Shown piece by piece: positions 2,333 through 34,899 of a stretch of 36,214 bases of DNA. Where the stretch lies: the IMG/VR virus record IMGVR_UViG_2541047804_000005; one strand, given 5' to 3'. Both the position numbers and the translations under genes were made by a program. The DNA is from a virus (taxonomy: Duplodnaviria; Heunggongvirae; Uroviricota; Caudoviricetes). The notes under the pieces are model-generated. The model did not search any database, was not told the origin of the DNA, and worked only from the letters and a program-made list of their open reading frames with translations. Within the stretch, counting starts at the first letter, position 1, and each line of letters opens with the position of its first letter.

Positions 2333-5300
2333 TACCGATATGCTCCACTTAACCGACCACCATCACGGGCCTGCTGTTGCATAAAGTCCGCTGCCGCTTT
2401 TTTCCCGAGGTCATAAACCGCCTTCAGGGCAGCCGGACCTATCTGCCCGTTCGTGCCATCGTTATTGATCTCGATGTTGTACTGCGGGGAAAACATCGCC
2501 ATACCTGAACCCCCAATATCCGCCACAACCCCCAGCTTACCGTCAGCACCACGACGCAATGGCAGAATGGCTTCAGGTCCCGCTTCCCCCATCACACCCG
2601 CGCCTTTTGCAAAAGCAAAAAACGTCGGACGGTTAACCACCGTGCCACTGTAACGACTCAAATCAGCAGACTGATAAATCCCCCCATTGGCATTCAGGGA
2701 AAGGCTGCTGAGATCAAATCCCAGCACACTGCCAATCCCTTTTATCGATTTCATCATGGTTGCCTGCGCCAGGATTTTCGCCATATCTGACAGCACAGAA
2801 GAGGTGAAGGATTTGAAATTGAGTTTGCCGGTAGTGACAAAAGTTGCCAGGCCATTTCCCATGTTGCTGAAGGCTGACGAGAACACCTGTTCTGCTGTTC
2901 CTGCCGTATTATCTGCATCCACGGTAAAATCCTGAAATGCACGCAGGACTCCGTTTTTCCAGTTACCCTGCACAACTTCAAGCTGTTGCCAGTAACGGCG
3001 ATTCTCATTCAGTTGTCGGTTCAGGCTCTCCGTCAGCGCCTGCTCGGCCTTTCTGTAGTCATCCGTGTTATATGTTCCTTTCTGCTCACTATCCCGCCTC
3101 AACTGCTCCAGCTGTTGCTGGTATTTCTGGCGAAGACTCAGTTGTACCTGATATCGCTGCCGCTGCTGATCACCCATACCCACCGTGGCGATATCCAGGT
3201 CATGTTGCTGACGCTGAGCGCGCTCTTCTTCAGCCAGTTGACTGGTCAGCTGAATTGTTTTTTTCTTCAGCTCGTTGAGTGCCGTCTGTTTCTGAAGCTC
3301 CTGCTGTTTTACATCCAGCAGCGTCAGTGCCTGAATCAGTTCATCTTTACGGGCCAGCACACTCTTTTCATCTGCCGTCAGTTTTTTCCCGTCCAGGTCG
3401 CTGATGCGCTGCTGCAGAGCCAGAAGCTGTTTATGCGCTTCTGTCATCCTTTCCGTGGCAATGCCTGCTGACTGTCTGGCAGCAGCAATCTGTCCTTCCA
3501 CCTGTGCCTGTTGCTGACTGTACTGCAGCAATAACCGGGTGGCCTCATCATTACGGGGTTCGCGTGTTTTTTTCTTACCGGATGCCAGGGCTTTCTCGTA
3601 ACGTTCATTTTCACGTTGTATCGCTGCATCCCTGACAGCCTGATCGGCGTACTGCATGGAATTAATACGCGCAATTTCACGCTGATGTCGTGCTGCTTCC
3701 GTTTCATTCATCCGGTTCAGTGCAGCATTTTCAGCATTACGTCGTTTCTGTTGCTCCTGATAATTCCGCTCTGCCTGCTCTTTTGCATCCTGCAAATCCT
3801 TCTGGCGTTTTTTCTCCTGAAGATCGTTAAGACGCTGCTGATCGTATTCAACCTGAGAAGATGATGCCGTCCAGGGGAGTCTTTTCGCCCGCGACACTTT
3901 CTCCTGTAAAGCGGCAATCTGTTCATCCAGCGAGTCTTCACGACCAATATTCATGGCCGCATCCCAGAAACGACTCCACAAATCAGACAGATACTTCAGC
4001 GTACTGCCAAGCGCATTGAGGTTATTATCAATATCCGCAGTACGCCGACCGGTTTCCTCTGCCAGTGCAGACATGGCTATCCGTGCAGCATCACTGGACC
4101 GTCCCTGATCCCCAAGGACACGTATCTGCTCAAGCTGAGTGGCAGTAAGAAAATGCAGCTCATTGTCCAGAGCCTTCGCGGCATTTACAGGATCATCCTT
4201 CAGCCGCTTAAACTGATTTATGGTATCGCTGACCGACTGGCCAACCGATCGCTCCATCTGTGCGGCAGCTCTCGCCACCATACCGATATCGTTTCCACGA
4301 AATGCACCACTCCCCACCACCTGAGCCAGCGCACCGGCTGCAGCATGTTGCGTGATACCATTCCCGGAAATAGCACGACTGAGCGTCCACAGCTGCCCGG
4401 CAGTGACTCCGGCATAATGCCCCGTCAGCGACAACTGGCGGTTAAATTCTTCCCCCTCCTTCTGACCGTCATACCAGGCTTTACCCAGACCATAGACGGA
4501 CGCGGCAATACCGCCAATAACCCCGCCAAGCATCATGCCTTTCGGTGACATCAGAGTGTCTATCCATCCGGCACGGTTAGCCAGCGTTATCCCGGATCCC
4601 CTCAGCGCCCCTAAATTGCCGCGGGCCAGTTCACCTATCAGAACGCCAATCTCCTGGCGGGCCGCTGCACTTTTCAGACCCAGCGAATGCGTGGCTTTTC
4701 CTGCCTGCTCCATTTTGCGGATATACACTTCTGCAGCACTGCTTACCCCCAGCTGGGCAGCCTTAGCACGAAGCAACTCAGAAGAAGAAAGATTCTGGCG
4801 GGTTGCCTGCTCTTTAAGCTGACGGATAAACGCCACTTTCTGTCGGGTAGCCTCTTCCTCAGCCTGCGTAAGAACACGGGTTTTCGCCGTAACCTCAGAA
4901 ATCAGCGCCAGATAATCCTGCTGACCAATCCCGCCACTGTTTCTGGCCTGTCGGATCTGCTGCTGAATACGCTGTAATTCCTGCAGCCCCGCACTGGCCT
5001 GTTTCACACTGTCAATCTGACGATAAAACGCGGCAGCCGCTTTATCCTGAGCCTCCGCCAGAGCCATGGCCTGCGCCTGTTCCTCGCGCATTTTCTGGCT
5101 CAGTGCCTCCATACGCTGGCGGGTTTGCTCCACCTCGCGGGCCATGCGTTCATGAGCCTGTGCGCTCTTCTCCACCGTCTGCGCATGGACGGATGCGGCT
5201 GTTGCAGCCGAAGAAGCCGCCTGCATTGTCTGCCGGGCGGCCTGAGTCTGACGCTCCATAAAACGCTGCATACGGGCAGAAGACCGTTCTGCATCGCTGG

Positions 5301-5427
5301 CTGCACCATTCAGAAGGTTTTTGATACGGGGAATTTCATTTTTAAACTCTGCCGCATCAATCCCCAAATCAATGACCAGGTTGGCTATCTGGTCCATAAC
5401 GCACACCTCCGGAAATACCTTCCCCAA
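2332..5427 (-). CDS. Tail tape measure protein (lambda gpH-like)
   Basis: 1031-aa ORF with long coiled-coil, Q/E/R/A-rich repeats and a Gly-rich hydrophobic segment, typical of tape measure proteins; sits between G-T and M. Confidence 0.9.
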   Translation of the reverse strand: MGKVFPEVCVMDQIANLVIDLGIDAAEFKNEIPRIKNLLNGAASDAERSSARMQRFMERQTQAARQTMQAASSAATAASVHAQTVEKSAQAHERMAREVEQTRQRMEALSQKMREEQAQAMALAEAQDKAAAAFYRQIDSVKQASAGLQELQRIQQQIRQARNSGGIGQQDYLALISEVTAKTRVLTQAEEEATRQKVAFIRQLKEQATRQNLSSSELLRAKAAQLGVSSAAEVYIRKMEQAGKATHSLGLKSAAARQEIGVLIGELARGNLGALRGSGITLANRAGWIDTLMSPKGMMLGGVIGGIAASVYGLGKAWYDGQKEGEEFNRQLSLTGHYAGVTAGQLWTLSRAISGNGITQHAAAGALAQVVGSGAFRGNDIGMVARAAAQMERSVGQSVSDTINQFKRLKDDPVNAAKALDNELHFLTATQLEQIRVLGDQGRSSDAARIAMSALAEETGRRTADIDNNLNALGSTLKYLSDLWSRFWDAAMNIGREDSLDEQIAALQEKVSRAKRLPWTASSSQVEYDQQRLNDLQEKKRQKDLQDAKEQAERNYQEQQKRRNAENAALNRMNETEAARHQREIARINSMQYADQAVRDAAIQRENERYEKALASGKKKTREPRNDEATRLLLQYSQQQAQVEGQIAAARQSAGIATERMTEAHKQLLALQQRISDLDGKKLTADEKSVLARKDELIQALTLLDVKQQELQKQTALNELKKKTIQLTSQLAEEERAQRQQHDLDIATVGMGDQQRQRYQVQLSLRQKYQQQLEQLRRDSEQKGTYNTDDYRKAEQALTESLNRQLNENRRYWQQLEVVQGNWKNGVLRAFQDFTVDADNTAGTAEQVFSSAFSNMGNGLATFVTTGKLNFKSFTSSVLSDMAKILAQATMMKSIKGIGSVLGFDLSSLSLNANGGIYQSADLSRYSGTVVNRPTFFAFAKGAGVMGEAGPEAILPLRRGADGKLGVVADIGGSGMAMFSPQYNIEINNDGTNGQIGPAALKAVYDLGKKAAADFMQQQARDGGRLSGAYR

Positions 5428-5698
5428 GATGCATCAGTTCTTCGTCCGTTCGCTCCGGTATCCCGTTCTCTTCCGGTAAAAGGCTGAAATCAGCCACCGC
5501 AGCATCACTGCTACCGGACACCATTCTCACGATCAATGCCTTCAGCGAGGCAAACTGCGCATCCATCCACACATCACTGAAGCTCTGCATCCGGAAATAA
5601 TCGCCCCACTCACCAAGCTCAGTGGCCGACATTTCCGACAGCATCCGCCGCCAGTCTGCCCGCCGGAACTCCCGGGCAAGCCGCATGACAAACTGCAT
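5369..5698 (-). CDS. Tail assembly chaperone T segment (expressed as G-T fusion by -1 frameshift)
   Basis: 109-aa ORF in the -1 frame relative to G, beginning at the 3' end of G and ending inside the tape measure start region, as for lambda G-T. Confidence 0.6.
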   Translation of the reverse strand: MQFVMRLAREFRRADWRRMLSEMSATELGEWGDYFRMQSFSDVWMDAQFASLKALIVRMVSGSSDAAVADFSLLPEENGIPERTDEELMHLGEGISGGVRYGPDSQPGH

Positions 5699-5706
5699 TT
5701 CCCGCG

Positions 5707-5722
5707 TCAGGACTTTTCCGGC
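5707..5722 (-). other. Candidate -1 programmed ribosomal frameshift site (G to G-T)
   Basis: Minus-strand mRNA reads CCG GAA AAG TCC TGA at the end of G; the heptamer GGAAAAG (rc of plus 5713-5719) differs by one base from lambda GGGAAAG and the -1 frame continues into the T ORF. Confidence 0.5.
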
Positions 5723-6135
5723 GTCAGCACCTCATGCTCCAAATCCCCGGCATTCTCAATGACTCCCATACCGCTCAGCGACAGAACCATCTCCGCCCCC
5801 GCTCCCAGGGCATCATACGACCATGTTGTAATAACGGATGCGCAAAGCGTCTCAACATCCTGAGACTGTTCCGCATTCCACAGTGAGCGGGAAACCAGCC
5901 AGGCATTGATATCCATCCCCATCCGCAGAAAAGCAATCTGTCGTTCAGCCTCCGGCAGTTCTCCCTCTTCGGCATCAAACTTTGCCGTTCGCTGCTGAAC
6001 AAACGCCAGATATTCAATTCTCTGCAGCCCGGACAGCTCACTGAGCACCACGGACTGCTTTTCATAATTAAACGTGCCCTGTTTCAGAAACATCATGTTC
6101 TCCACCTGCAAAAAAGCCCCGGATAACCGGGGCAA
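5707..6135 (-). CDS. Tail assembly chaperone, lambda gpG-like
   Basis: 142-aa ORF between major tail protein V and the tape measure gene, acidic C-terminal region; lambda G is 140 aa. Confidence 0.8.
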   Translation of the reverse strand: MPRLSGAFLQVENMMFLKQGTFNYEKQSVVLSELSGLQRIEYLAFVQQRTAKFDAEEGELPEAERQIAFLRMGMDINAWLVSRSLWNAEQSQDVETLCASVITTWSYDALGAGAEMVLSLSGMGVIENAGDLEHEVLTPEKS

Positions 6136-6153
6136 ATGATGAGTATCGTCCTG

Positions 6154-6903
6154 TTAACCTGCGGCGCTGACAGCCACCGCAGCCACTGCCACAAAATCGC
6201 CGTCAGAAGTCATGCCCACAATGCTGACACTGCCCTGCTTCACGCCTTTCACCGTGGCCACAAGCCCGTTCAGGGTCACCGTGGCAGTCTGTGGATCTGT
6301 CGAATGCACACTGATCGCTTTGTCACTGGCTCCGTCAGGTTTTACTGTAAAGGTCAGCGTGGTGGTTGCTCCCACTTTTACACTGGCAGATGCCGGTGCC
6401 ACCGTCAGCCCGGTAACGCTCACTGTTTCAGTGCCTTCCTCTGCCAGATACGGACGCCCCACACCGCTGATTTTCACTGTGCGGGTCATCACGTCTTTTG
6501 AGGCAATGGTTTTACCCAGTGAGCTCAGCCAGCCACGGAAAACATCAACAGTGCCGTTGGGATATTTGATACGAAACGCGCAGACTTCACCGGAGTCGAA
6601 CAACTGAACCAGTTTTTTCTGCCCGCTGTCACCCGGACGCCAGGCCAGCGTCGCCGAAGTATCACCGACGGATTTCTGCCCCTGGGTTGTCGTTTTCCAG
6701 TCTGCATCTTCATCATCGAGATAAGTGTCATCTTCTGCATCAGCGGTCATTTCGCCAGGTTGCAGATCCTTCACCATCGCAAGACGCAGCCAGTCAGTGT
6801 CCGATAAAGGGTTCGCAAACGCATCGCCCTTGCCGGTGTACATCCAGAACGTCGTTCCCGCACCTTTCGTTTTTGCCAGTGGATTTGGTGTGGTCATTGC
6901 CAC
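6154..6903 (-). CDS. Major tail protein, lambda gpV-like, with C-terminal Ig-like domain
   Basis: 249-aa ORF; lambda V is 246 aa. C-terminus is a Thr/Val/Ser-rich beta-strand region typical of Big_2 Ig-like domains. Confidence 0.85.
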   Translation of the reverse strand: MAMTTPNPLAKTKGAGTTFWMYTGKGDAFANPLSDTDWLRLAMVKDLQPGEMTADAEDDTYLDDEDADWKTTTQGQKSVGDTSATLAWRPGDSGQKKLVQLFDSGEVCAFRIKYPNGTVDVFRGWLSSLGKTIASKDVMTRTVKISGVGRPYLAEEGTETVSVTGLTVAPASASVKVGATTTLTFTVKPDGASDKAISVHSTDPQTATVTLNGLVATVKGVKQGSVSIVGMTSDGDFVAVAAVAVSAAG

Positions 6904-6908
6904 CTCCT

Positions 6909-7322
6909 TTAATTCGTGTACGTGATCTGGTACGTGATTTCCGCCATCGCCCAGGTGGCCATCTCATTATCACGTTGATAGTTAAAACCGAGAGGGATCA
7001 GGGTGTCGATGAGTCCGGAAAGTGCCGGTATATCATTCAGGGCCGGGAAAATGGTGCTCTCCATCCACATATCCAGCTCTGAATCCGGTGCCTGTGCCCG
7101 GATGAAGACAGCAATATGCAGAACAGCCTGCCAGTCATCTTCATCCGTCATTTTTCCGGTGTACTGAGCATCACTCAGCCACACCGCCACGGCAGGCAGT
7201 TCCTGCGCATCAATAAATGCCGGAAGCCCGTCAAAAAACGTGGCGCTGTCTCCACACTGTTCCCGAAGGCGTGCCAGTACGGCCTGGCGGATTTGTGTAT
7301 GTCGGTTCATCGGGTCAGCCAT
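6909..7322 (-). CDS. Tail terminator protein, lambda gpU-like
   Basis: 137-aa ORF whose sequence aligns by eye with lambda U as remembered (ATFFDG, PAVAV, DSELD.WMES, IPALS motifs). Confidence 0.85.
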   Translation of the reverse strand: MADPMNRHTQIRQAVLARLREQCGDSATFFDGLPAFIDAQELPAVAVWLSDAQYTGKMTDEDDWQAVLHIAVFIRAQAPDSELDMWMESTIFPALNDIPALSGLIDTLIPLGFNYQRDNEMATWAMAEITYQITYTN

Positions 7323-17067: not shown

Positions 17068-17338
17068 GATGTTACCGTAGTATGTGAGTATCCATCGAAT
17101 AGATACCAAGCAAAAAAGCTCCCGAAGGAGCCTTCATTTTCACTTTTTTAAATCCAACGACAGACGGCTGGCATTTAAGTATTGTGAAATATTATCAAAT
17201 GTAATCATCATTGATTTACAAAAGATACATTTTGCCCCGAAAGGATTCATGTCAGAAACATCAAAAGATGATGTTCTATACTGGGAACCATGACAACACG
17301 GGCATCTAAAGTGAATATGGTTTGTAATATTGTCTACC

Positions 17339-17551
17339 TCAAAGCGCCACTACATGAACAGCGGCAGGACCTTTAGGTCCGTTCTCAATACCAAATTCAA
17401 CTTCCTGATTCTCAGTTAATGTTTTGAAATCGTTGCTCTGAATTGCTGAGAAATGGACAAACACATCTTTGCTGCCATCTTTCGGCGTGATGAAACCAAA
17501 ACCTTTTTCAGGGTTAAACCATTTCACTAAACCAGTCATTTTGTTAGACAT
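17339..17551 (-). CDS. cspI: Cold shock protein, CspA family (CspI-like)
   Basis: 70-aa ORF with the cold-shock domain signature KWFN.EKGFGFI and VFVHFSAI (RNP1/RNP2 motifs); a long AT-rich upstream leader region follows on the minus strand. Confidence 0.8.
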
Positions 17552-17914
17552 AATTATTACCTTTTGAAGAAATTAGCCCTTGGGCAGAATGGTCCGAAAA
17601 AAAATATCAGAGAGAAAAACCAACAAGGAAATCTCAAGAGGTACAAATAATAAAATTATAACAATGACTGCTTCAGATAAATTTGTAACAAACCAGAACA
17701 CCATTAACGCATGATTAACCACCCATAGCAAGGATTACTTTTGTAAAGAAAAACACAGCAATGAAAGAATAGCTTTATTTATTAATAATAACGTGTCATT
17801 CTGATTAAGACCTTTTATCTTACCCTTAAGATTTCAGGAATTTTGGCTCATGGAAGAGTCCTTTTTATTTAAATTTTACATTCCGCGATGTAAATGTTCC
17901 GATTTAATATTACC

Positions 17915-19939: not shown

Positions 19940-20223
19940 TTTGAGATTGTGGTGCTTTTTGTGGGAGTCATCCACTTACGCACTTTGTTTTGCCATGCCA
20001 GCAGTTAGCTTCTGCTGTAAAACTATTCATGCAGCAAACCTGCACTTCACCACAATGGTTAGCATACTTTTCCTGATTAAGATTTTGCCAAATATGCTAG
20101 CCATTGTTTCATGTATTGGACCTCCTTACTTTTTATTAAAGAGATCCAATATTCACTACTCTGTCCGTATCTCTACTCAGGCATCAGCCTTCTTCGTTAT
20201 CGTATACAGACGAGCGATGAATT

Positions 20224-20439
20224 TTAATCAGTAATGATGACATTTGCTGCTGCAGGACCTTTAGCACCACTCTCTATAGAGAAGGTAACCTTTTGACCTT
20301 CAAATAAGGTTCGATAATTATCATTCTGAATCGCAGAAAAATGCACAAACACATCTTTACTACCATCAACAGGAGAAATAAAGCCGAAACCTTTATCAGC
20401 GTTAAACCATTTTACTAAACCAGTCATTTTATTTGACAT
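20224..20439 (-). CDS. cspB: Cold shock protein, CspA family (CspB-like)
   Basis: 71-aa [26 protein letters not shown]...VFVHFSAI with both RNP motifs; divergent from the cspF-like gene as in Qin. Confidence 0.75.
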
Positions 20440-20739
20440 TCTACATTCCTTAACTTGAGCCTTTCGGCATAAATGGTTTGCATAACAGAAACGACTTCGT
20501 ACTTAATTGGAGAGACTCAAAGAAGGAATAAGTGAATAACACCTGAAATGAGAACTGCTTTAGTAAACTACTTCGTATATCGTCTGTTCTTCAAACCGAC
20601 GCAATCATTAACGCATAGTTGAACATATGAAGCAATGTTTATTTTAGACATCCAGCCATCTTCAACCCCATCAAAAAACTATAGCTTTCTTCAGGAACGT
20701 GTGTATAGTGCGCCAAGTTATCAGTATTAAGGAATTTTT

Positions 20740-22639: not shown

Positions 22640-22654
22640 GGTAATGACTCCAAC

Positions 22655-23158
22655 TTATTGATAGTGTTTTATGTTCAGATAATGCCCGATGACTTTGTCA
22701 TGCAGCTCCACCGATTTTGAGAACGACAGCGACTTCCGTCCCAGCCGTGCCAGGTGCTGCCTCAGATTCAGGTTATGCCGCTCAATTCGCTGCGTATATC
22801 GCTTGCTGATTACGTGCAGCTTTCCCTTCAGGCGGGATTCATACAGCGGCCAGCCATCCGTCATCCATATCACCACGTCAAAGGGTGACAGCAGGCTCAT
22901 AAGACGCCCCAGCGTCGCCATAGTGCGTTCACCGAATACGTGCGCAACAACCGTCTTCCGGAGCCTGTCATACGCGTAAAACAGCCAGCGCTGGCGCGAT
23001 TTAGCCCCGACGTATCCCCACTGTTCGTCCATTTCCGCGCAGACGATGACGTCACTGCCCGGCTGTATGCGCGAGGTTACCGACTGCGGCCTGAGTTTTT
23101 TAAATGGCGGAAAATCGTGTTGAGGCCAACGCCCATAATGCGGGCGGTTGCCCGGCAT
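22655..23158 (-). CDS. insB: IS1 transposase InsB frame (expressed as InsAB' by -1 frameshift)
   Basis: 167-aa ORF inside IS1 with the IS1 InsB sequence as remembered. Confidence 0.85.
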
Positions 23159-23352
23159 CCAACGCCATTCATGGCCATATCAATGATTTTCTGGTGCGTA
23201 CCGGGTTGAGAAGCGGTGTAAGTGAACTGCAGTTGCCATGTTTTACGGCAGTGAGAGCAGAGATAGCGCTGATGTCCGGCGGTGCTTTTGCCGTTACGCA
23301 CCACCCCGTCAGTAGCTGAACAGGAGGGACAGCTGATAGAAACAGAAGCCAC
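23077..23352 (-). CDS. insA: IS1 InsA (transposition repressor)
   Basis: 91-aa [46 protein letters not shown]..., the canonical InsA length and zinc-finger sequence. Confidence 0.9.
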
Positions 23353-23407
23353 TGGAGCACCTCAAAAACACCATCATACACTAAATCAGTAAGTTGGCAG
23401 CATCACC

Positions 23408-24780: not shown

Positions 24781-24936
24781 TTACTCCTCAGGTTCGTAAG
24801 CTGTGAAGACAGCGACCTCCGTCTGGCCGGTTCGGATTCGTACCTCGCAGAGGTCTTTCCTCGTTACCAGTGCCGTCACTATGACGGTTAAACAGATGAC
24901 GATCAGGGCGATTAACATCGCCTTTTGCTGCTTCAT
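24781..24936 (-). CDS. hokD: Hok-family type I toxin (HokD/RelF-like)
   Basis: 51-aa ORF MKQQKAMLIALIVICLTVIVTALVTRKDLCEVRIRTGQTEVAVFTAYEPEE: single transmembrane helix plus the conserved Hok C-terminal Cys region. Confidence 0.85.
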   Translation of the reverse strand: MKQQKAMLIALIVICLTVIVTALVTRKDLCEVRIRTGQTEVAVFTAYEPEE

Positions 24937-24993
24937 AGCCTGCTTCTCCTTGCCTTTCGGCTCGTAAGAGGCTAACCTACATGTGTCTAGCAT
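24781..24993 (-). CDS. Mok-like reading frame (in-frame N-terminal extension of hok)
   Basis: ATG at 24991-24993 opens a 70-aa frame (MLDTCRLASYEPKGKEKQA-MKQQK...) that runs into hok, resembling MokC-type arrangement. Confidence 0.5.
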   Translation of the reverse strand: MLDTCRLASYEPKGKEKQAMKQQKAMLIALIVICLTVIVTALVTRKDLCEVRIRTGQTEVAVFTAYEPEE

Positions 24994-25050
24994 GAAATTG
25001 GCCTCAGATTAATGTTAAGCGTCTTGCAGGACGCGTAATGTTAACTGGGG
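24985..25050 (+). ncRNA. Predicted Sok-like antisense RNA
   Basis: Plus-strand TTGCCT-N17-TAACCT (24950-24978) would start an antisense transcript across the mok start codon and ribosome binding site; a short hairpin GCGTC-TTGCAG-GACGC lies at 25010-25025. No clear U-tract terminator; ends are approximate. Confidence 0.3.
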
Positions 25051-25111
25051 CTTTTCTCTATCTGCCTTTGGTGTTCATGCCCGAGGCAGATAGCCTCAAG
25101 CACCCGCAGCC

Positions 25112-25610: not shown

Positions 25611-27398
25611 ATGGACGATATTAATATCAGCCTCGACGAACTTAACACTATTGATTTATCCCCCTTAATCCAGAGTAAGCTGCCAGTTACCTGCTTTGAT
25701 ATCACAAAGTATCTTTCTAGCCTAGGTGATGGAAGAGCGGAGATAAGACTGCTAACCCATATTTGCGGTTTTCACTTTCGTCCCGAAAATCCACAGGTAC
25801 CATTTGGTCCGTGCTTTCAAAGCAGCCAAGGTAGATCTGCAATTCCGGATGACATTAACGGGTTGTCGCTGGAGGTACTTTCTCAATTTTGCCCGACGAT
25901 AGAGCTACCCGAACTTCAAGCTCGTATTGCTGATACACTTTGGGTTCGTAAAATTGGTGGAATCCGTTTTCCTTTGCTGGCAGTCCGTGCTTATTATGCG
26001 TCCAGTATAGCTATTATGACATCGCAAGGGACGTGGGTTAGTGCTTTAGAACGCCTAGAGCGTGCGCTTAGGCTGTGTTGTTTTTTTCGAAAGAATACTG
26101 ATTTCAGGGATGAATTTGATCAGCTTTCGGCACATCTACTAGCAGAGTATGAACGTACCAGAGAACAAGGCGATTCACCTTATCCGCTGCGACTCCTGCA
26201 ACTCGATATCGACTGTAAAGTGAGTGAGCCATCTTTTATTGCCCAGGAACTCCTGTTTCTGACAAAAAACTATCTGGCTCAAAAATTATTTTCATTTGCC
26301 GTCGATGCCTGTAAAACCGCAATCACGATTGCGAATAGGTGCTGTGACAGAGATACACAGTTTGAATTCTGGCGGCTTCTTGCCGATACACATCTGGAAG
26401 AGTCAAAATTCCAAGATGGCGGTATGATTTCGGCAGCCTGCATGCAGAATGCTATTGAAGCACTGGCTAATATTCCAGGAACCCGAATAGAACGTCTTGC
26501 GCTGTATGAAGAAATGCGTGATTACCAAATCGAATCCCGTCACCAGATGTCTATCCTTCAGTCTCCCCCTCAAGATATTAGTGAGATTGTCCATCAAGCC
26601 AAGAGTCGGGTAGTCGGAAGAGATATGTTTGATATGGTTTTCAGACTTGCGATGCTGGTCTGTCGGCCAACCAGCATTGAGAGACTTAAGGCTCAAGCAA
26701 TAGAACAAAAGGCCAACAGCATAGCTTGGATGTTTGGATCAACACATATTGATCATGAGGGAATGACACTTGCTCGCATACCCGCAGGATTGGGGATTGA
26801 TGATGCAAATGGGGCAGTTATTTGGCCCATAATGATGACGAGAATGCGTATCGACCATGAGTTGGCAGTAGCTGGGCAAATTATTCCTGCTACAGATGAG
26901 ATCACAATGAAATATCCAATCTCGGAGGCGTTTTTTCGCGATATGTTCATCAATCATCCCTTCATCCCGTTTGGGCATGAAGAGTTTTTCATCAAGGGTA
27001 TGGTTTGCGGTTTCAATGGAGATTTTATGACGGCATGCCACGTGTTGATTCCCCAGATCGAAAATAGTCTGAGATATGTGGCTAAAATTAAAGGTGAGGA
27101 ACCATCGCAGCTTCACGGGGACGGTTCGCAAGAGCGAAATGGACTCAAGGGATTACTAGATAATCCACTGATTATTGAAGCTTTCGGCGTAGACATAATT
27201 GGCAATCTTCAGGCCTTACTGGTAGATAAAATCTATGGTGATTTACGAAATCAACTAGCTCACGGATATGTGCCTGCCGGTTACTACAATCAACCTCCCT
27301 GCATTTTTGCATGGTGGCTTGTATTGCACATTCTAATGAACCCTACGGCGAGATACTGGCAAGCCACTTATGGCCAAGAGAGTGAGGCTCAGACTTAA
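25611..27398 (+). CDS. Orphan 595-aa protein with C-terminal HEPN-like Rx4HxY motif; candidate abortive-infection or defence RNase
   Basis: Long uninterrupted ORF with AGGTGA ribosome binding site, opposite in orientation to both neighbours, lower GC than the flanking phage genes. C-terminal LRNQLAHGY (R546...H551.Y553) fits the HEPN Rx4-6H / HepT Rx4HxY catalytic signature. No N-terminal domain recognised. Confidence 0.6.
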   Translation: MDDINISLDELNTIDLSPLIQSKLPVTCFDITKYLSSLGDGRAEIRLLTHICGFHFRPENPQVPFGPCFQSSQGRSAIPDDINGLSLEVLSQFCPTIELPELQARIADTLWVRKIGGIRFPLLAVRAYYASSIAIMTSQGTWVSALERLERALRLCCFFRKNTDFRDEFDQLSAHLLAEYERTREQGDSPYPLRLLQLDIDCKVSEPSFIAQELLFLTKNYLAQKLFSFAVDACKTAITIANRCCDRDTQFEFWRLLADTHLEESKFQDGGMISAACMQNAIEALANIPGTRIERLALYEEMRDYQIESRHQMSILQSPPQDISEIVHQAKSRVVGRDMFDMVFRLAMLVCRPTSIERLKAQAIEQKANSIAWMFGSTHIDHEGMTLARIPAGLGIDDANGAVIWPIMMTRMRIDHELAVAGQIIPATDEITMKYPISEAFFRDMFINHPFIPFGHEEFFIKGMVCGFNGDFMTACHVLIPQIENSLRYVAKIKGEEPSQLHGDGSQERNGLKGLLDNPLIIEAFGVDIIGNLQALLVDKIYGDLRNQLAHGYVPAGYYNQPPCIFAWWLVLHILMNPTARYWQATYGQESEAQT

Positions 27399-30571: not shown

Positions 30572-31147
30572 ATGGATTTCGACACAATCATGGAAAAGGC
30601 TTACGAAGAATACTTCGAAGGCCTTGCCGAAGGCGAAGAAGCTCTCAGCTTCAGTGAGTTTAAACAGGCACTCAGAATAAGAATGCGCTCTCACAATGAC
30701 GCGGAGCACAAATATGAGAAGCAAAATCAGACCGCAGAAAATTTTGTTCTGGAACCCGGAGAAACGCTTTTCAAAATTCCCGTTACGTGCCCCATTTGCG
30801 GTTTTACATCAGAAGAACTTGACGACTCCTGTAACAATCAGGAAACAACCAAGTATGTCGAAGATGATACCGAGTGCGCACGAAGAACGATTATATCCAC
30901 GAGTCCAAACTCCAGGACCAATAAATCTCACTTTGAGAGGGTGATTAATCCACTCCCCCAAACCAATAAAAAAGATGCCGGAGGACAAAAAAACCAATGG
31001 AACAACGGGATATCTGTCAAAAAAAGACGTTCCATTAAAGACAAACAACGCAGCGCCAACAACTGTAAGCGCTTTATACCAGTAATCAATTTTCATGTTC
31101 TTAAGCGGATTTATTGGTGGTTGCGACATTGCTTAATGAATCCTTAA
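30572..31147 (+). CDS. Hypothetical protein in the ydfB/ydfC position (191 aa, zinc-ribbon CPICGF, basic low-complexity C-terminus)
   Basis: ATG 30572 two nt after the ydfA stop; the C-terminal half is unusually basic and overlaps an alternative-frame ORF (30696-30944), so the true gene structure is uncertain. Confidence 0.35.
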   Translation: MDFDTIMEKAYEEYFEGLAEGEEALSFSEFKQALRIRMRSHNDAEHKYEKQNQTAENFVLEPGETLFKIPVTCPICGFTSEELDDSCNNQETTKYVEDDTECARRTIISTSPNSRTNKSHFERVINPLPQTNKKDAGGQKNQWNNGISVKKRRSIKDKQRSANNCKRFIPVINFHVLKRIYWWLRHCLMNP

Positions 31148-31406: not shown

Positions 31407-31459
31407 TTTCTGGTGACGTTTGGCGGTATCAGTTTTACTCCGTGACTGCTCTGCCGCCG
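31407..31459 (+). ncRNA. dicF: DicF small RNA
   Basis: TTTCTGGTGACGTTTGGCGGTATCAGTTTTACTCCGTGACTGCTCTGCCGCC followed by GTTTTT matches DicF as remembered, including the GGCGG...CCGCC terminator stem; located just upstream of dicB. Confidence 0.75.
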
Positions 31460-31633
31460 TTTTTAAAGTGAATTTTGTGATGCGGTGAATGCGGCTAAGC
31501 GCACGCGGAACAGTTAAAACCAAAAACAGTGTTATGGGTGGATTCTCTGTATCCGGCGTTAATTGTTAACTGGTTAACGTCACCTGGAGGCACCAGGCAC
31601 TGCATCACAAAATTCATTGTTGAGGACGCGATA

Positions 31634-31822
31634 ATGAAAACGTTATTACCAAACGTTAATACGTCTGAAGGTTGTTTTGAAATTGGTGTCACTATCAGTA
31701 ACCCTGTATTTACTGAAGATGCCATTAACAAGAGAAAACAAGAACGGGAGCTATTAAATAAAATATGCATTGTTTCAATGCTGGCTCGTTTACGTCTGAT
31801 GCCAAAAGGATGTGCACAATGA
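31634..31822 (+). CDS. dicB: Cell division inhibitor DicB
   Basis: 62-aa ORF MKTLLPNVNTSEGCFEIGVTISNPVFTEDAINKRKQERELLNKICIVSMLARLRLMPKGCAQ, matching DicB as remembered. Confidence 0.8.
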   Translation: MKTLLPNVNTSEGCFEIGVTISNPVFTEDAINKRKQERELLNKICIVSMLARLRLMPKGCAQ

Positions 31823-32010
31823 ATTCAGCATTTGCGCTTGTTCTGACAGTTTTTCTTGTTTCCGGAGAGCCAGTTGATATTGCAGTCAGTGTTCACAGGA
31901 CAATGCAGGAGTGTATGACTGCAGCAACCGAACAGAAAATTCCCGGTAACTGTTACCCGGTCGATAAAGTTATTCACCAGTATAATATCGAAATCCCGGC
32001 AGGTCTTTAA
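31819..32010 (+). CDS. ydfD: YdfD-like small membrane protein
   Basis: 63-aa ORF from ATG 31819, overlapping the dicB stop (ATGA); N-terminal hydrophobic segment FALVLTVFLV. Confidence 0.55.
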   Translation: MNSAFALVLTVFLVSGEPVDIAVSVHRTMQECMTAATEQKIPGNCYPVDKVIHQYNIEIPAGL

Positions 32011-32103: not shown

Positions 32104-34575
32104 ATGAGTAAAGTCTTTATTTGCGCCGCTATTCCTGACGAACTGGCAACAAGGGAAGAAGGCGCTGTGGCTGTAGCCACAGCCATTGAAGCTGGCGACG
32201 AACGCCGTGCTCGAGCAAAATTTCACTGGCAATTCCTGGAACATTATCCGGCTGCTCAGGACTGCGCTTATAAATTTATTGTCTGCGAGGATAAACCTGG
32301 CATACCCCGCCCTGCCCTCGATTCATGGGATGCTGAATATATGCAGGAAAACCGCTGGGATGAGGAGTCTGCTTCTTTTGTCCCGGTTGAGACTGAATCC
32401 GATCCGATGAACGTCACTTTTGACAAGCTGGCCCCTGAAGTACAGAACGCTGTCATGGTTAAGTTCGACACATGTGAAAACATCACCGTTGATATGGTTA
32501 TTAGCGCACAGGAATTGTTGCAGGAAGACATGGCAACATTCGACGGACATATCGTTGAAGCGTTGATGAAAATGCCAGAAGTTAACGCCATGTATCCGGA
32601 GCTTAAGTTGCACGCCATTGGGTGGGTTAAGCATAAATGTATTCCTGGTGCTAAATGGCCCGAAATTCAGGCAGAGATGCGCATCTGGAAAAAACGTCGC
32701 GAAGGTGAACGCAAGGAAACCGGAAAATACACGTCTGTTGTTGATCTCGCCCGCGCCAGAGCCAATCAACAGTACACTGAAAATTCAACAGGAAAAATCA
32801 GCCCGGTCATTGCTGCCATTCATCGCGAATACAAGCAGACATGGAAAACACTGGATGACGAACTGGCCTACGCTCTCTGGCCTGGTGATGTGGATGCCGG
32901 AAACATTGACGGCAGCATCCATCGCTGGGCAAAAAATGAAGTTATCGATAACGACCGCGAAGACTGGAAGCGTATCTCGGCATCAATGCGCAAACAGCCT
33001 GATGCCCTTCGCTACGACCGCCAAACTATTTTTGGCCTTGTCCGTGAACGTCCGATCGACATTCACAAAGATCCCGTAGCACTGAACAAATATATCTGCG
33101 AATACCTGACGACAAAGGGCGTGTTTGAGAATGAAGAAACAGACCTGGGCACTGTTGATGTTCTCCAGTCATCAGAAACACAAACTGATGCAGTGGAAAC
33201 TGAGGTATCTGATATCCCAAAAAATGAAACCGCGCCGGAAGCTGAACCATCTGTAGAGCGTGAGGGGCCGTTCTATTTCCTCTTCGCAGATAAGGACGGA
33301 GAAAAATACGGTCGCGCAAACAAACTTTCTGGTCTGGATAAGGCACTGGCTGCTGGCGCCACTGAAATCACAAAAGAAGAATATTTTGCCCGAAAAAATG
33401 GCACATACACGGGCTTACCGCAAAATGTAGATACCGCTGAAGATTCAGAACAACCAGAGCCGATAAAAGTTACCGCTGACGAAGTAAACAAAATTATGCA
33501 GGCAGCCAATATCATCCAGCCTGACGCCGATAAGTTGCTTGCTGCATCACGTGGTGAATTTGTTGAAGGGATTAGTGACCCGAATGATCCGAAATGGGTT
33601 AAGGGGATCCAGACCCGCGATTCTGTGAACCAGAACCAGCATGAATCGGAACGGAACTACCAAAAAGCGGAACAAAACAGCCCAAATGCGTTACAAAACG
33701 AGCCAGAAACGAAACAGCCTGAATCAGTGGCGCAACAGGAAGTGGAAAAAGTCTGCACCGCCTGCGGTCAGACCGGCGGCGGCAACTGCCCTGATTGTGG
33801 CGCGGTAATGGGCGACGCAACATACCAGGAAACATTCGATGAAGAGTATCAGGTTGAAGTTCAGGAAGATGATCCGGAGAAAATGGAAGGCGCTGAACAT
33901 CCACACAAGGAGAACACTGGCGGCAATCAGCATCACGATAGCGATAATGAAACTGGCGAGACGGCAGATCACTCAATTAAGGTGAACGGTCATCACGAAA
34001 TCACATCCACCAGCAGGACGTGTGACCATCTAATGATCGACCTTGAAACCATGGGAAAAAATCCTGATGCCCCGATCATCTCAATAGGTGCAATATTTTT
34101 CGATCCGCAAACCGGAGATATGGGACCGGAATTTATTAAGACTATCGATCTGGAAACTGCTGGCGGAGTCATTGATCGGGACACCATTAAATGGTGGTTT
34201 AAGCAATCACGCGAAGCGCAATCTGCCATTATGACCGATGAAATCCCGTTAGATGATGCACTGTTACAATTGCGGGAATTTATCGACGAAAACTCCGGTG
34301 AATTTTTTGTTCAGGTCTGGGGAAATGGAGCCAACTTCGACAACACGATTTTGCGCCGTTCATACGAACGGCAGGGGATCCCCTGCCCGTGGCGTTACTA
34401 CAACGATCGCGATGTACGCACAATCGTTGAGCTGGGGAAAGCCATAGACTTCGATGCCAGAACGGCTATTCAATTCGAAGGTGAGCGCCATAATGCACTT
34501 GATGACGCCCGTTACCAGGCAAAATACGTTTCAGTTATCTGGCAAAAACTGATCCCGAGTCAGGCTGATTCTTAA
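32104..34575 (+). CDS. Large early protein with C-terminal DEDDh 3'-5' exonuclease domain
   Basis: 823-aa ORF with GAGG ribosome binding site; C-terminal region has DnaQ-like motifs (MIDLETMG; WGNGANFDNTIL; HNALDDARY), preceded by an acidic linker and a CTACG...CPDCG zinc ribbon; sits next to xis-int. Confidence 0.6.
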   Translation: MSKVFICAAIPDELATREEGAVAVATAIEAGDERRARAKFHWQFLEHYPAAQDCAYKFIVCEDKPGIPRPALDSWDAEYMQENRWDEESASFVPVETESDPMNVTFDKLAPEVQNAVMVKFDTCENITVDMVISAQELLQEDMATFDGHIVEALMKMPEVNAMYPELKLHAIGWVKHKCIPGAKWPEIQAEMRIWKKRREGERKETGKYTSVVDLARARANQQYTENSTGKISPVIAAIHREYKQTWKTLDDELAYALWPGDVDAGNIDGSIHRWAKNEVIDNDREDWKRISASMRKQPDALRYDRQTIFGLVRERPIDIHKDPVALNKYICEYLTTKGVFENEETDLGTVDVLQSSETQTDAVETEVSDIPKNETAPEAEPSVEREGPFYFLFADKDGEKYGRANKLSGLDKALAAGATEITKEEYFARKNGTYTGLPQNVDTAEDSEQPEPIKVTADEVNKIMQAANIIQPDADKLLAASRGEFVEGISDPNDPKWVKGIQTRDSVNQNQHESERNYQKAEQNSPNALQNEPETKQPESVAQQEVEKVCTACGQTGGGNCPDCGAVMGDATYQETFDEEYQVEVQEDDPEKMEGAEHPHKENTGGNQHHDSDNETGETADHSIKVNGHHEITSTSRTCDHLMIDLETMGKNPDAPIISIGAIFFDPQTGDMGPEFIKTIDLETAGGVIDRDTIKWWFKQSREAQSAIMTDEIPLDDALLQLREFIDENSGEFFVQVWGNGANFDNTILRRSYERQGIPCPWRYYNDRDVRTIVELGKAIDFDARTAIQFEGERHNALDDARYQAKYVSVIWQKLIPSQADS

Positions 34576-34647: not shown

Positions 34648-34899
34648 ATGAGCGAAGTAATCATGATTGTCTCTCCCGGCAAATGGGTATCCGAAGAGCA
34701 GTTAATTGCGCTGAAAGGAATAAAAAAAGGTACGTTAAAAAAGGCCCGGGAAAAATCGTTTATGGAAGGAAGGGAATATAAGCATGTCGCTCATGACGGT
34801 ATGCCATGGGATAACAGTCCATGCTTTTACAACCTGGAAGAAATTGATCGCTGGATTGAGCGCCAGGCATCAGCAAGACCAAGACGTCATCTTACTTGA
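34648..34899 (+). CDS. Putative excisionase / small DNA-binding protein
   Basis: 83-aa ORF immediately upstream of the integrase; assigned by position and size. Confidence 0.5.
   Translation: MSEVIMIVSPGKWVSEEQLIALKGIKKGTLKKAREKSFMEGREYKHVAHDGMPWDNSPCFYNLEEIDRWIERQASARPRRHLT

Follow-up and report, generated by a model that had tools for sequence, protein, structure and literature searches.

In the present study, we analysed a stretch of viral DNA of 36,214 nucleotides (nt) (Caudoviricetes; IMG/VR virus record IMGVR_UViG_2541047804_000005; hereafter the window) and, within it, a gene of 823 codons at 32104-34575 that lies directly before xis and int. We found that this gene is an intact ydfE, the product of which joins a large body of the RecE family to a DEDDh domain where RecE carries its PD-(D/E)XK nuclease, and that no recT follows it. 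The identity and the architecture of the protein are essentially certain, and its biological role in the phage is uncertain. With about even confidence, we consider it to be a 3'-5' DNA-end-processing exonuclease that works alongside the host RecBCD and RecA, its DexA-like DEDDh domain having replaced both PD-(D/E)XK and recT on the RecE-family chassis.

The open reading frame (ORF) is 100% identical to the locus of strain 118UI that the Prokaryotic Genome Annotation Pipeline (PGAP) calls 'exonuclease' (WP_000048333.1), phrog_2082 covers the protein end to end, and a GAGG motif stands 10 nt 5' of the ATG. A frame of 823 codons with a ratio of nonsynonymous to synonymous substitution rates (dN/dS) of 0.08-0.33 in its folded modules is far beyond chance, and the coordinates and length given in the initial annotation, a model's reading of the bare sequence, proved exact. 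Residues 1-256 are identical (256/256) to those of K-12 ydfE (b1577) up to the insertion point of IS2E, the insertion sequence that cuts the K-12 gene into a pseudogene of the cryptic prophage Qin. Since these residues agree completely and the gene order is that of Qin, the window gene is ydfE in intact form. This order (dicC-like cro, dicA-like repressor, ydfA, a 191-residue protein, DicF, dicB, ydfD, the window gene, xis, int) is common to K-12 Qin and phage Tritos. The window and the E. coli prophage of 118UI are 99.95-99.99% identical, bar one insertion of 768 bp, and because the DNA is near-identical the PGAP annotation of that prophage transfers to the window. The window is a Qin/DicB-type lambdoid prophage integrated beside rspB, in which DicF, dicB and ydfD (31408..32010) form one early-left operon with the window gene.

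The protein consists, in order, of three folded N-terminal domains, a conserved zinc-ribbon segment, a long disordered acidic tether and the DEDDh domain, and the zinc ribbon, acidic linker and C-terminal DEDDh domain that the initial annotation had read from the sequence are all borne out (C551/C554/C562/C565, residues 576-640 and PF16473 at E=1.6e-66). In the AlphaFold2 (AF2) model, module A2 is made of a helical domain (about 245-345), an acidic disordered stretch (346-389) and a small beta-hairpin/helix domain (about 390-435). Module B, which is mostly predicted to be disordered, holds the DADKLLAASRGEFVEGISDPNDPKWVKGIQTRD motif, the zinc ribbon and the start of the acidic linker; its amino acid identity is 68% to Rac RecE and 96% to phage vB_EcoS-813R8. 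All four Cys of the zinc ribbon are kept in 94/94 close full-length cluster representatives. The linker (28% D+E, 11% His, net charge -14) is predicted to be disordered, and the model of residues 454-823, with a mean predicted local distance difference test (pLDDT) score of 49.6, was excluded from the fold search. Precomputed Pfam matches of YdfE_N (PF27430), YdfE_C (PF27432) and PF16473 were found on the 93%-identical cluster representative P0010.

The relation to RecE is evident from BLASTP, in which residues 262-625 align with Rac RecE 278-591 (E=2e-61), near-identical from residue 473 and with the zinc ribbon and the acidic linker included. The alignment ends at RecE 591, just short of the PD-(D/E)XK nuclease (RecE ~600-866). 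The NCBIfam RecE equivalog NF007259 scored 281.1 bits, short of its cut-off of 1269, and over profile positions 271-602 of 877 only. PF12684 (DUF3799, the RecE-type nuclease) had no match on the window protein, and no RecE nuclease domain was found by tblastn against the window at E<=1e-3. Judged by these alignments, the protein is a member of the RecE family by its body and not by its catalytic domain. The contrast with RecE-type proteins drawn in the initial annotation was therefore too wide, as the catalytic domain alone differs beyond the aligned part; its placing of the gene in the recombination slot beside xis-int is right, and matches the recE-recT slot of Rac-type prophages. Like Rac RecE and RecT, the gene occupies the early-left operon slot directly 5' of xis-int, and like Rac RecE the protein has a central region with the zinc ribbon, the DPNDPKWVKGIQTRD motif and the acidic linker (RecE 278-591) and a large N-terminal body of unexplained job. 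The sole known effect of this body in RecE is enhanced linear-linear recombination (PMC11611040). Unlike in Rac RecE, where a 5'-3' PD-(D/E)XK nuclease is present and recT overlaps the gene, the window protein carries a DEDDh domain of predicted 3'-5' polarity, its gene has no overlapping recT, and its first ~260 residues are of another sequence type (YdfE_N).

A search with residues 1-630 revealed two architectures on one N-terminal body. The first (YdfE_N + YdfE_C + PF16473) has 812-826 residues, and one of its 90%-identity clusters comprises 23,183 member sequences. The second (YdfE_N + YdfE_C + PF12684/DUF3799) has 900 residues, with the YdfE_N and YdfE_C matches likewise precomputed. Residues 1-625 of the window protein have 97% identity to one such 900-residue protein; the protein alignment ends there, and the two are unrelated thereafter. 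At the nucleotide level, blastn homology to two genes of the second type (L009, 98.4%; L010, 92.9%) and to Rac recE (77.9%, from window 33528) ends in all three at window 33970. The 900-residue genes of Rac-site prophages (e.g. P0002, P0070) also share dicB-ydfD upstream with the window gene. Past codon ~623 they continue into a RecE-type nuclease, then an overlapping recT, rcbA, a Rac-type xis/int and the ttcA site, whereas the window gene continues into DEDDh, then a Qin-type xis/int and the rspB site. In two scans of IMG/VR, in which DEDDh-type loci were counted if they had at least 900 nt of downstream sequence, recT was present in 80/80 PD-(D/E)XK-type viral loci, starting 4 nt before the nuclease stop, and in 0/66 DEDDh-type loci. 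The search for an annealase partner in related prophages, which had been proposed as a check, thus found no recT beside the DEDDh-type genes. The window-type xis was detected in 40 of these DEDDh-type viral loci, and its aligned part starts 76-79 nt past the point where the alignment of the nuclease domain stops.

The family is small, with 244 matches at E<=0.001 among the 50%-identity representatives of 1.84 billion proteins, and among these representatives all four combinations of N-terminus type and nuclease type occur. A third arrangement was seen in phage vB_EcoS-813R8, where a RecE-type N-terminus takes the place of residues 1-453 and is followed by module B and DEDDh as in the window protein. 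Only one segment keeps high nucleotide conservation between these otherwise dissimilar genes, and the mosaic joint falls within it; Rac-like and Qin-like prophages may plausibly exchange DNA by homology there. In the literature text available, that of Zheng et al. (Genome Res 2025, PMC12315714) included, we found neither the exact exchange of nucleases on a conserved chassis nor its coupling to recT described. We also observed a Chi site (GCTGGTGG) within the gene at 34007-34014 on the minus strand, 37 bp past the breakpoint at 33970; a causal tie between this site and the joint is speculation. A third C-terminus on the YdfE/RecE-type body (phrog_7838 'exonuclease', Gifsy-type) had no Pfam match in the Pfam copy used, and a fourth, phrog_26058, was seen in one representative, P0126; the variants of these two kinds are P0126, P0129, P0134, P0136, P0153, P0169 and P0184. 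These proteins may be the 'RecE-2' of Zheng et al., which is described there as having no recognisable nuclease domain (PMC12315714).

In the DEDDh domain, PF16473 (Rv2179c-like) matches residues 642-813 with 223.8 bits against a gathering cut-off of 27 (profile positions 2-177 of 177), and the catalytic residues D646 and E648 (ExoI, DxE), D746 (ExoII), and H796 and D801 (ExoIII, Hx4D) are all intact. This pentad is kept in 91 of the 94 close representatives, in 5 of 6 distant ones (the sixth, P0121, is a deletion variant) and in 5/5 standalone homologues. When the profile of the clade was run against PDB sequences, T4 DexA (8KEL/8KEN) was found at E=6e-19, followed by Cas2-DEDDh at 0.003 and by oligoribonuclease/REXO2 at E>0.2. 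By this measure the solved protein nearest to the domain is T4 DexA, a DNase and not an RNase; it degrades DNA 3'-5' and prefers the single-stranded form (PMC12153337). To judge from its domain, the window protein quite probably has 3'-5' DNA exonuclease activity. Independently, DnaQ-like 3'-5' nucleases were counted as members of lambdoid Rec modules by Zheng et al. (PMC12315714). The standalone homologues, 53-59% identical, lie in phage DNA-metabolism contexts: between erf-ssb and abc2 in the P22-like phages g341c and Bas106 (erf-ssb-exo-abc2 recombination modules; 53-55% identical over the domain), directly before xis in mEp460, and within the replication module in a Vibrio phage. T4 DexA (8KEL) and the standalone DnaQ-like exonucleases (g341c gp29, Bas106_0031, mEp460 gp26) belong to the same DEDDh clade and keep the pentad; they are free proteins of ~180-230 residues, whereas the window domain is tethered to a RecE-type chassis of 640 residues. 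In addition, a YfdQ/DUF2303 protein and a YfdR-like nucleotide phosphatase/phosphohydrolase lie near the standalone DEDDh gene in mEp460 (L007, 1225-2714) and in Pseudomonas phage pAN (L013, 1778-5298), and this co-occurrence in two unrelated hosts hints at a second conserved neighbourhood of the clade.

The kinship with DexA also raises an alternative, namely that the protein serves in inter-phage competition or anti-defence, with the DEDDh domain attacking the modified DNA of superinfecting T-even phages or the single-stranded or multicopy single-stranded DNA of host defence. DexA needs its W152 for activity on T4 DNA, and a short E. coli protein described as a DexA homologue, EcD (HAK9828821.1), is reported to digest T4 DNA containing 5-hydroxymethylcytosine (5hmC) and to protect against T4 (PMC12153337). 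The DexA clade contains the closest solved relative of the window domain, the operon is shared with the host-manipulating dicF, dicB and ydfD, and the prophage also bears a PDC-S39 candidate, all of which would suit such a role. The residue equivalent to W152, as placed by HMMER alignments that end at DexA residue 162 and thus short of the acidic D169, is Y766 in the window protein, so the Trp of the 5hmC-recognising 'HREX' type is lacking. Across the fused family several different residues occupy this position (Y 53, H 20, S 16, C 7, T 3, R 1, W 1), in contrast to six standalone homologues in which it is an invariant Trp. Furthermore, no PADLOC model matched the window protein, the gene order suggests that a repressor-controlled early-left operon should be silent in lysogens, and the common chassis and the slot exchange with recE-recT indicate DNA-end metabolism. 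We hold a defence role to be fairly unlikely.

That the domain instead trims or degrades RNA, such as the transcripts of the dicF-dicB operon or host RNAs, is suggested mainly by the family name: PF16473 is called 'exoribonuclease' after M. tuberculosis Rv2179c, and PGAP places the label '3'-5' exoribonuclease' on many homologues. The gene is also co-transcribed with the processed small RNA DicF, and DEDDh enzymes often accept DNA and RNA alike. Our literature search on Rv2179c found no phage-related work. The PDB profile search reached RNases at E>0.2 only, against 6e-19 for DexA, the standalone homologues sit in Erf-SSB-Abc2 DNA recombination modules, and on the RecE chassis the domain stands in for a DNA exonuclease. 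An RNA substrate is therefore given a low probability.

No annealase was found by any of the routes used, in agreement with the initial annotation, which had noted that no RecT or Beta-like protein follows the gene. The PGAP annotation of the 118UI prophage contains none, and tblastn with lambda Exo, Bet and Gam, RecT, P22-type Erf, SSB and Abc2, in which the positive control worked, found no homologue of any of them in the window at E<=1e-3. We also rejected the idea that one of the unnamed early genes encodes a hidden annealase, as PHROG scans of the 191-residue protein (30572-31147) and of the YdaT-like, O-like and DUF977 proteins returned no annealase family. Nor was the protein assigned to a well-characterised family with its partner encoded elsewhere in the window, which the initial annotation had named as the outcome that would overturn it; the Pfam families YdfE_N and YdfE_C exist, and the window holds no partner. 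The window contains nine Chi sites (13748, 14216, 18517, 22499, 22551, 23861, 23918, 25366 and 34007) against 1.04 expected from shuffles, and 7/9 are on the minus strand, the equivalent of the lambda top (active) strand. Zheng et al. describe a lambdoid class without anti-RecBCD and with abundant Chi, proposed to use RecBCD and Chi for recombination-dependent concatemer formation; it includes a four-member 'Tritos' type with a nuclease and no annealase, the prototype of which, Tritos, is listed as 'nuclease only' without a single-strand annealing protein (SAP) (PMC12315714). Tritos carries the window gene at 98.7% identity in the same gene order. The window, about 36 kb of a longer prophage, likewise has a nuclease, seven top-strand Chi sites (the type calls for at least four) and no SAP, SSB or anti-RecBCD, as in the class B Tritos type. 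It thus resembles the Tritos-type Rec module in gene, in the lone nuclease and in the abundance of Chi; the available text of PMC12315714 classifies the modules and does not dissect the chimeric architecture of this protein or its loss of recT.

Another reading is that the protein is one half of a two-component recombinase whose annealase comes in trans, from a co-resident prophage (e.g. a Rac-like RecT) or from a host protein. A median of two matching places per E. coli genome means that RecE-type and YdfE-type genes often coexist, and the standalone homologues do adjoin Erf. Resection in the 3'-5' direction can in principle support annealing, for which the poxvirus polymerase is a precedent. 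On the other side, recT is strictly tied to PD-(D/E)XK and never to DEDDh, reliance on a chance co-resident element would be an unstable strategy, and the isolated phages Tritos and HannyBb have no annealase near the gene, Tritos being listed without SAP in PMC12315714. We consider an annealase in trans to be quite improbable.

The gene is maintained by selection. Calculated by module against the divergent allele of phage Evi, dN/dS is low in every folded module (Table 1), which are all under purifying selection; copies 97.9-99.1% identical to the window gene hold too few substitutions for such an estimate in module B and DEDDh. A copy with at least 80% coverage, a threshold that leaves out the 900-residue type with its 75% of the gene shared, is present in 3,537/5,426 complete E. 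coli genomes (about 65%), and the gene is among the commonest prophage genes of E. coli. Three phages obtained by isolation or induction, HannyBb, Tritos and PhiR42_1, carry it intact. In PPompW prophages of enterohaemorrhagic E. coli strains (L017, PPompW_EH1846, 4501-6968) it is broken by a frameshift, independently of the IS2E disruption of the K-12 Qin copy (L004 6079-6999). That the gene is a mosaic relic, without function or in decay, left over when Rac-like and Qin-like prophages recombined, as these two lesions and a joint in a highly conserved segment open to easy homologous exchange might suggest, can hardly be credited in view of dN/dS of 0.16 on DEDDh (dS=1.1) and 0.08 on module A, the conserved catalytic residues and zinc ligands, the prevalence just given and the occurrence in plaque-forming or inducible phages.

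For an exonuclease that processes DNA ends alongside RecBCD and RecA, the following course of events can be suggested. The protein would be produced from the DicA-repressed early-left operon upon induction or infection, and the N-terminal chassis shared with RecE would place the enzyme, or assemble it into oligomers, at the ends of phage DNA or on its intermediates. From its tether, the DEDDh domain would then trim nucleotides off 3' DNA ends. Because there is no annealase, no RecBCD inhibitor and a host-like number of Chi sites, the enzyme most likely serves the reliance of the phage on host RecBCD and RecA, for instance by trimming 3' tails to give RecBCD substrates or by acting on intermediates of replication or recombination, and would not supply a phage single-strand-annealing pathway. 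Such a RecBCD/RecA-dependent mode would also explain why recT was lost together with the PD-(D/E)XK domain.

Several points weigh against this reading. Our literature search on YdfE found no functional data, and the initial annotation's statement that the role is unclear is upheld. The structure prediction it had proposed for the N-terminal part did produce folded domains in the AF2 model; Foldseek gave the chassis no significant structural neighbour in PDB or BFVD (BFVD at E<=0.001), and the chassis yields no functional clue. PMC12315714 notes that exonucleases of 3'-5' polarity usually hinder RecA-dependent recombination, since they destroy 3' tails, and therefore a pro-recombination role is not obvious. 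The link to RecBCD and Chi is correlative, being drawn from one published classification and a Chi count in a partial prophage of 36 kb, and the counts of 80/80 and 0/66 for recT come from closely related loci and represent few lineages or independent events. Cryptic prophages often carry a broken copy (IS2 in K-12, the frameshift in PPompW), and the host can therefore dispense with the gene.

A bolder and rather doubtful extension is that the RecE-family body (YdfE_N/RecE_N, helical domain, zinc ribbon and acidic tether) is a nuclease-agnostic delivery platform, the DEDDh version of which would be an annealase-free strategy that conditions ends for Chi-RecBCD-RecA. In such a platform, the body would recognise either DNA of a particular structure or a factor of the host, such as RecBCD, SSB or the replisome. 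If true, this would be a previously unrecognised functional alternative to the exonuclease-plus-annealase recombinases. The N-terminal part of RecE, of ~600 residues, has been without an assigned function for decades and is yet what gives full-length RecE its value for linear-linear recombination and direct cloning. Here nature offers a controlled comparison, in which a 97%-identical body is followed, from one joint, by a 5'-3' nuclease and RecT or by a predicted 3'-5' DEDDh domain without annealase. The swap implies that the job of the body is independent of the polarity of resection and of RecT, and the swap pairs are matched constructs for testing that job. In addition, the window gene is the only recombination-type gene in a widespread Chi-rich lambdoid class thought to rely on host RecBCD, and its function would help to explain the replication and recombination of such phages. 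Should the protein prove to be a common DNase of minor importance, the finding is ordinary. YdfE_N and YdfE_C as Pfam families, the PGAP name 'exonuclease', phrog_2082 and the phage class were already known, and the chief value of the present analysis is the natural experiment on the RecE N-terminus.

Table 1. Modules of the window gene and its neighbours in the early-left region, with window positions, dN/dS against the Evi allele and the basis of each assignment
Feature	Residues	Position	Strand	dN/dS	Basis or remark
Complete gene, intact YdfE (RecE-family chassis + DEDDh nuclease)	823 residues	32104..34575	+		ORF list, ATG start
Module A, YdfE-type N-terminal domain, alpha/beta + helical fold	1-260	32104..32883	+	0.08	
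Module A2	261-453	32884..33462	+	0.29	AF2 model; RecE alignment from residue 262; exoVIII profile match
Module B, common to compared RecE-type (PD-(D/E)XK + recT) genes	454-622	33463..33969	+	0.33	
Zinc ribbon CxxC-x7-CxxC (CTACG...CPDCG)	C551/C554/C562/C565	33754..33798	+		also in Rac RecE
Mosaic breakpoint	codon ~623	33970	strandless		end of DNA homology to three PD-(D/E)XK + recT genes
Junction linker after breakpoint	18 codons			~1.8	unconstrained
Acidic His-rich flexible linker	576-640	33829..34023	+		composition; pLDDT about 30
DEDDh 3'-5' exonuclease domain (predicted activity)	641-823	34024..34572	+	0.16 (dS=1.1)	PF16473; catalytic pentad
DicF small RNA		31408-31459	+		Rfam, 72.5 bits; just 5' of dicB
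dicB		31634-31822	+		PGAP, near-identical 118UI prophage
ydfD		31819-32010	+		PGAP, near-identical 118UI prophage
xis		34648-34899	+		72-nt gap after nuclease gene, without recT between
int		34919/34934-36214	+		

Some further features of the prophage were noted. The 768-bp insertion that is missing from the 118UI prophage (window 22640-23407) interrupts a ydfU (DUF968) homologue and contains ORFs for InsA (23077-23352, minus strand) and InsB (22655-23158, minus strand); we take it to be of the IS1 type from recognition of the InsA and InsB sequences, without a database match. A DUF4209 protein of 595 residues (25611-27398, plus strand), whose gene runs against the adjoining early-right genes in DNA of low GC content, was matched at E=8e-103 by PDC-S39, a candidate defence system of PADLOC, and is probably a prophage-borne defence moron. 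The 191-residue protein (30572-31147, plus strand) occupies the place of ydfB and ydfC in K-12 Qin. Its residues 1-34 match a ydfB-like PHROG and the remainder is phrog_35040 with a CPICG...C cysteine motif; it had no PADLOC match. Finally, gathering-level Rfam matches were obtained for a sok antitoxin RNA adjoining hokD (24931-25105, minus strand) and for two cspA-type thermoregulator leaders (17312-17697 and 20208-20600, both on the minus strand) 5' of the prophage cold-shock genes.

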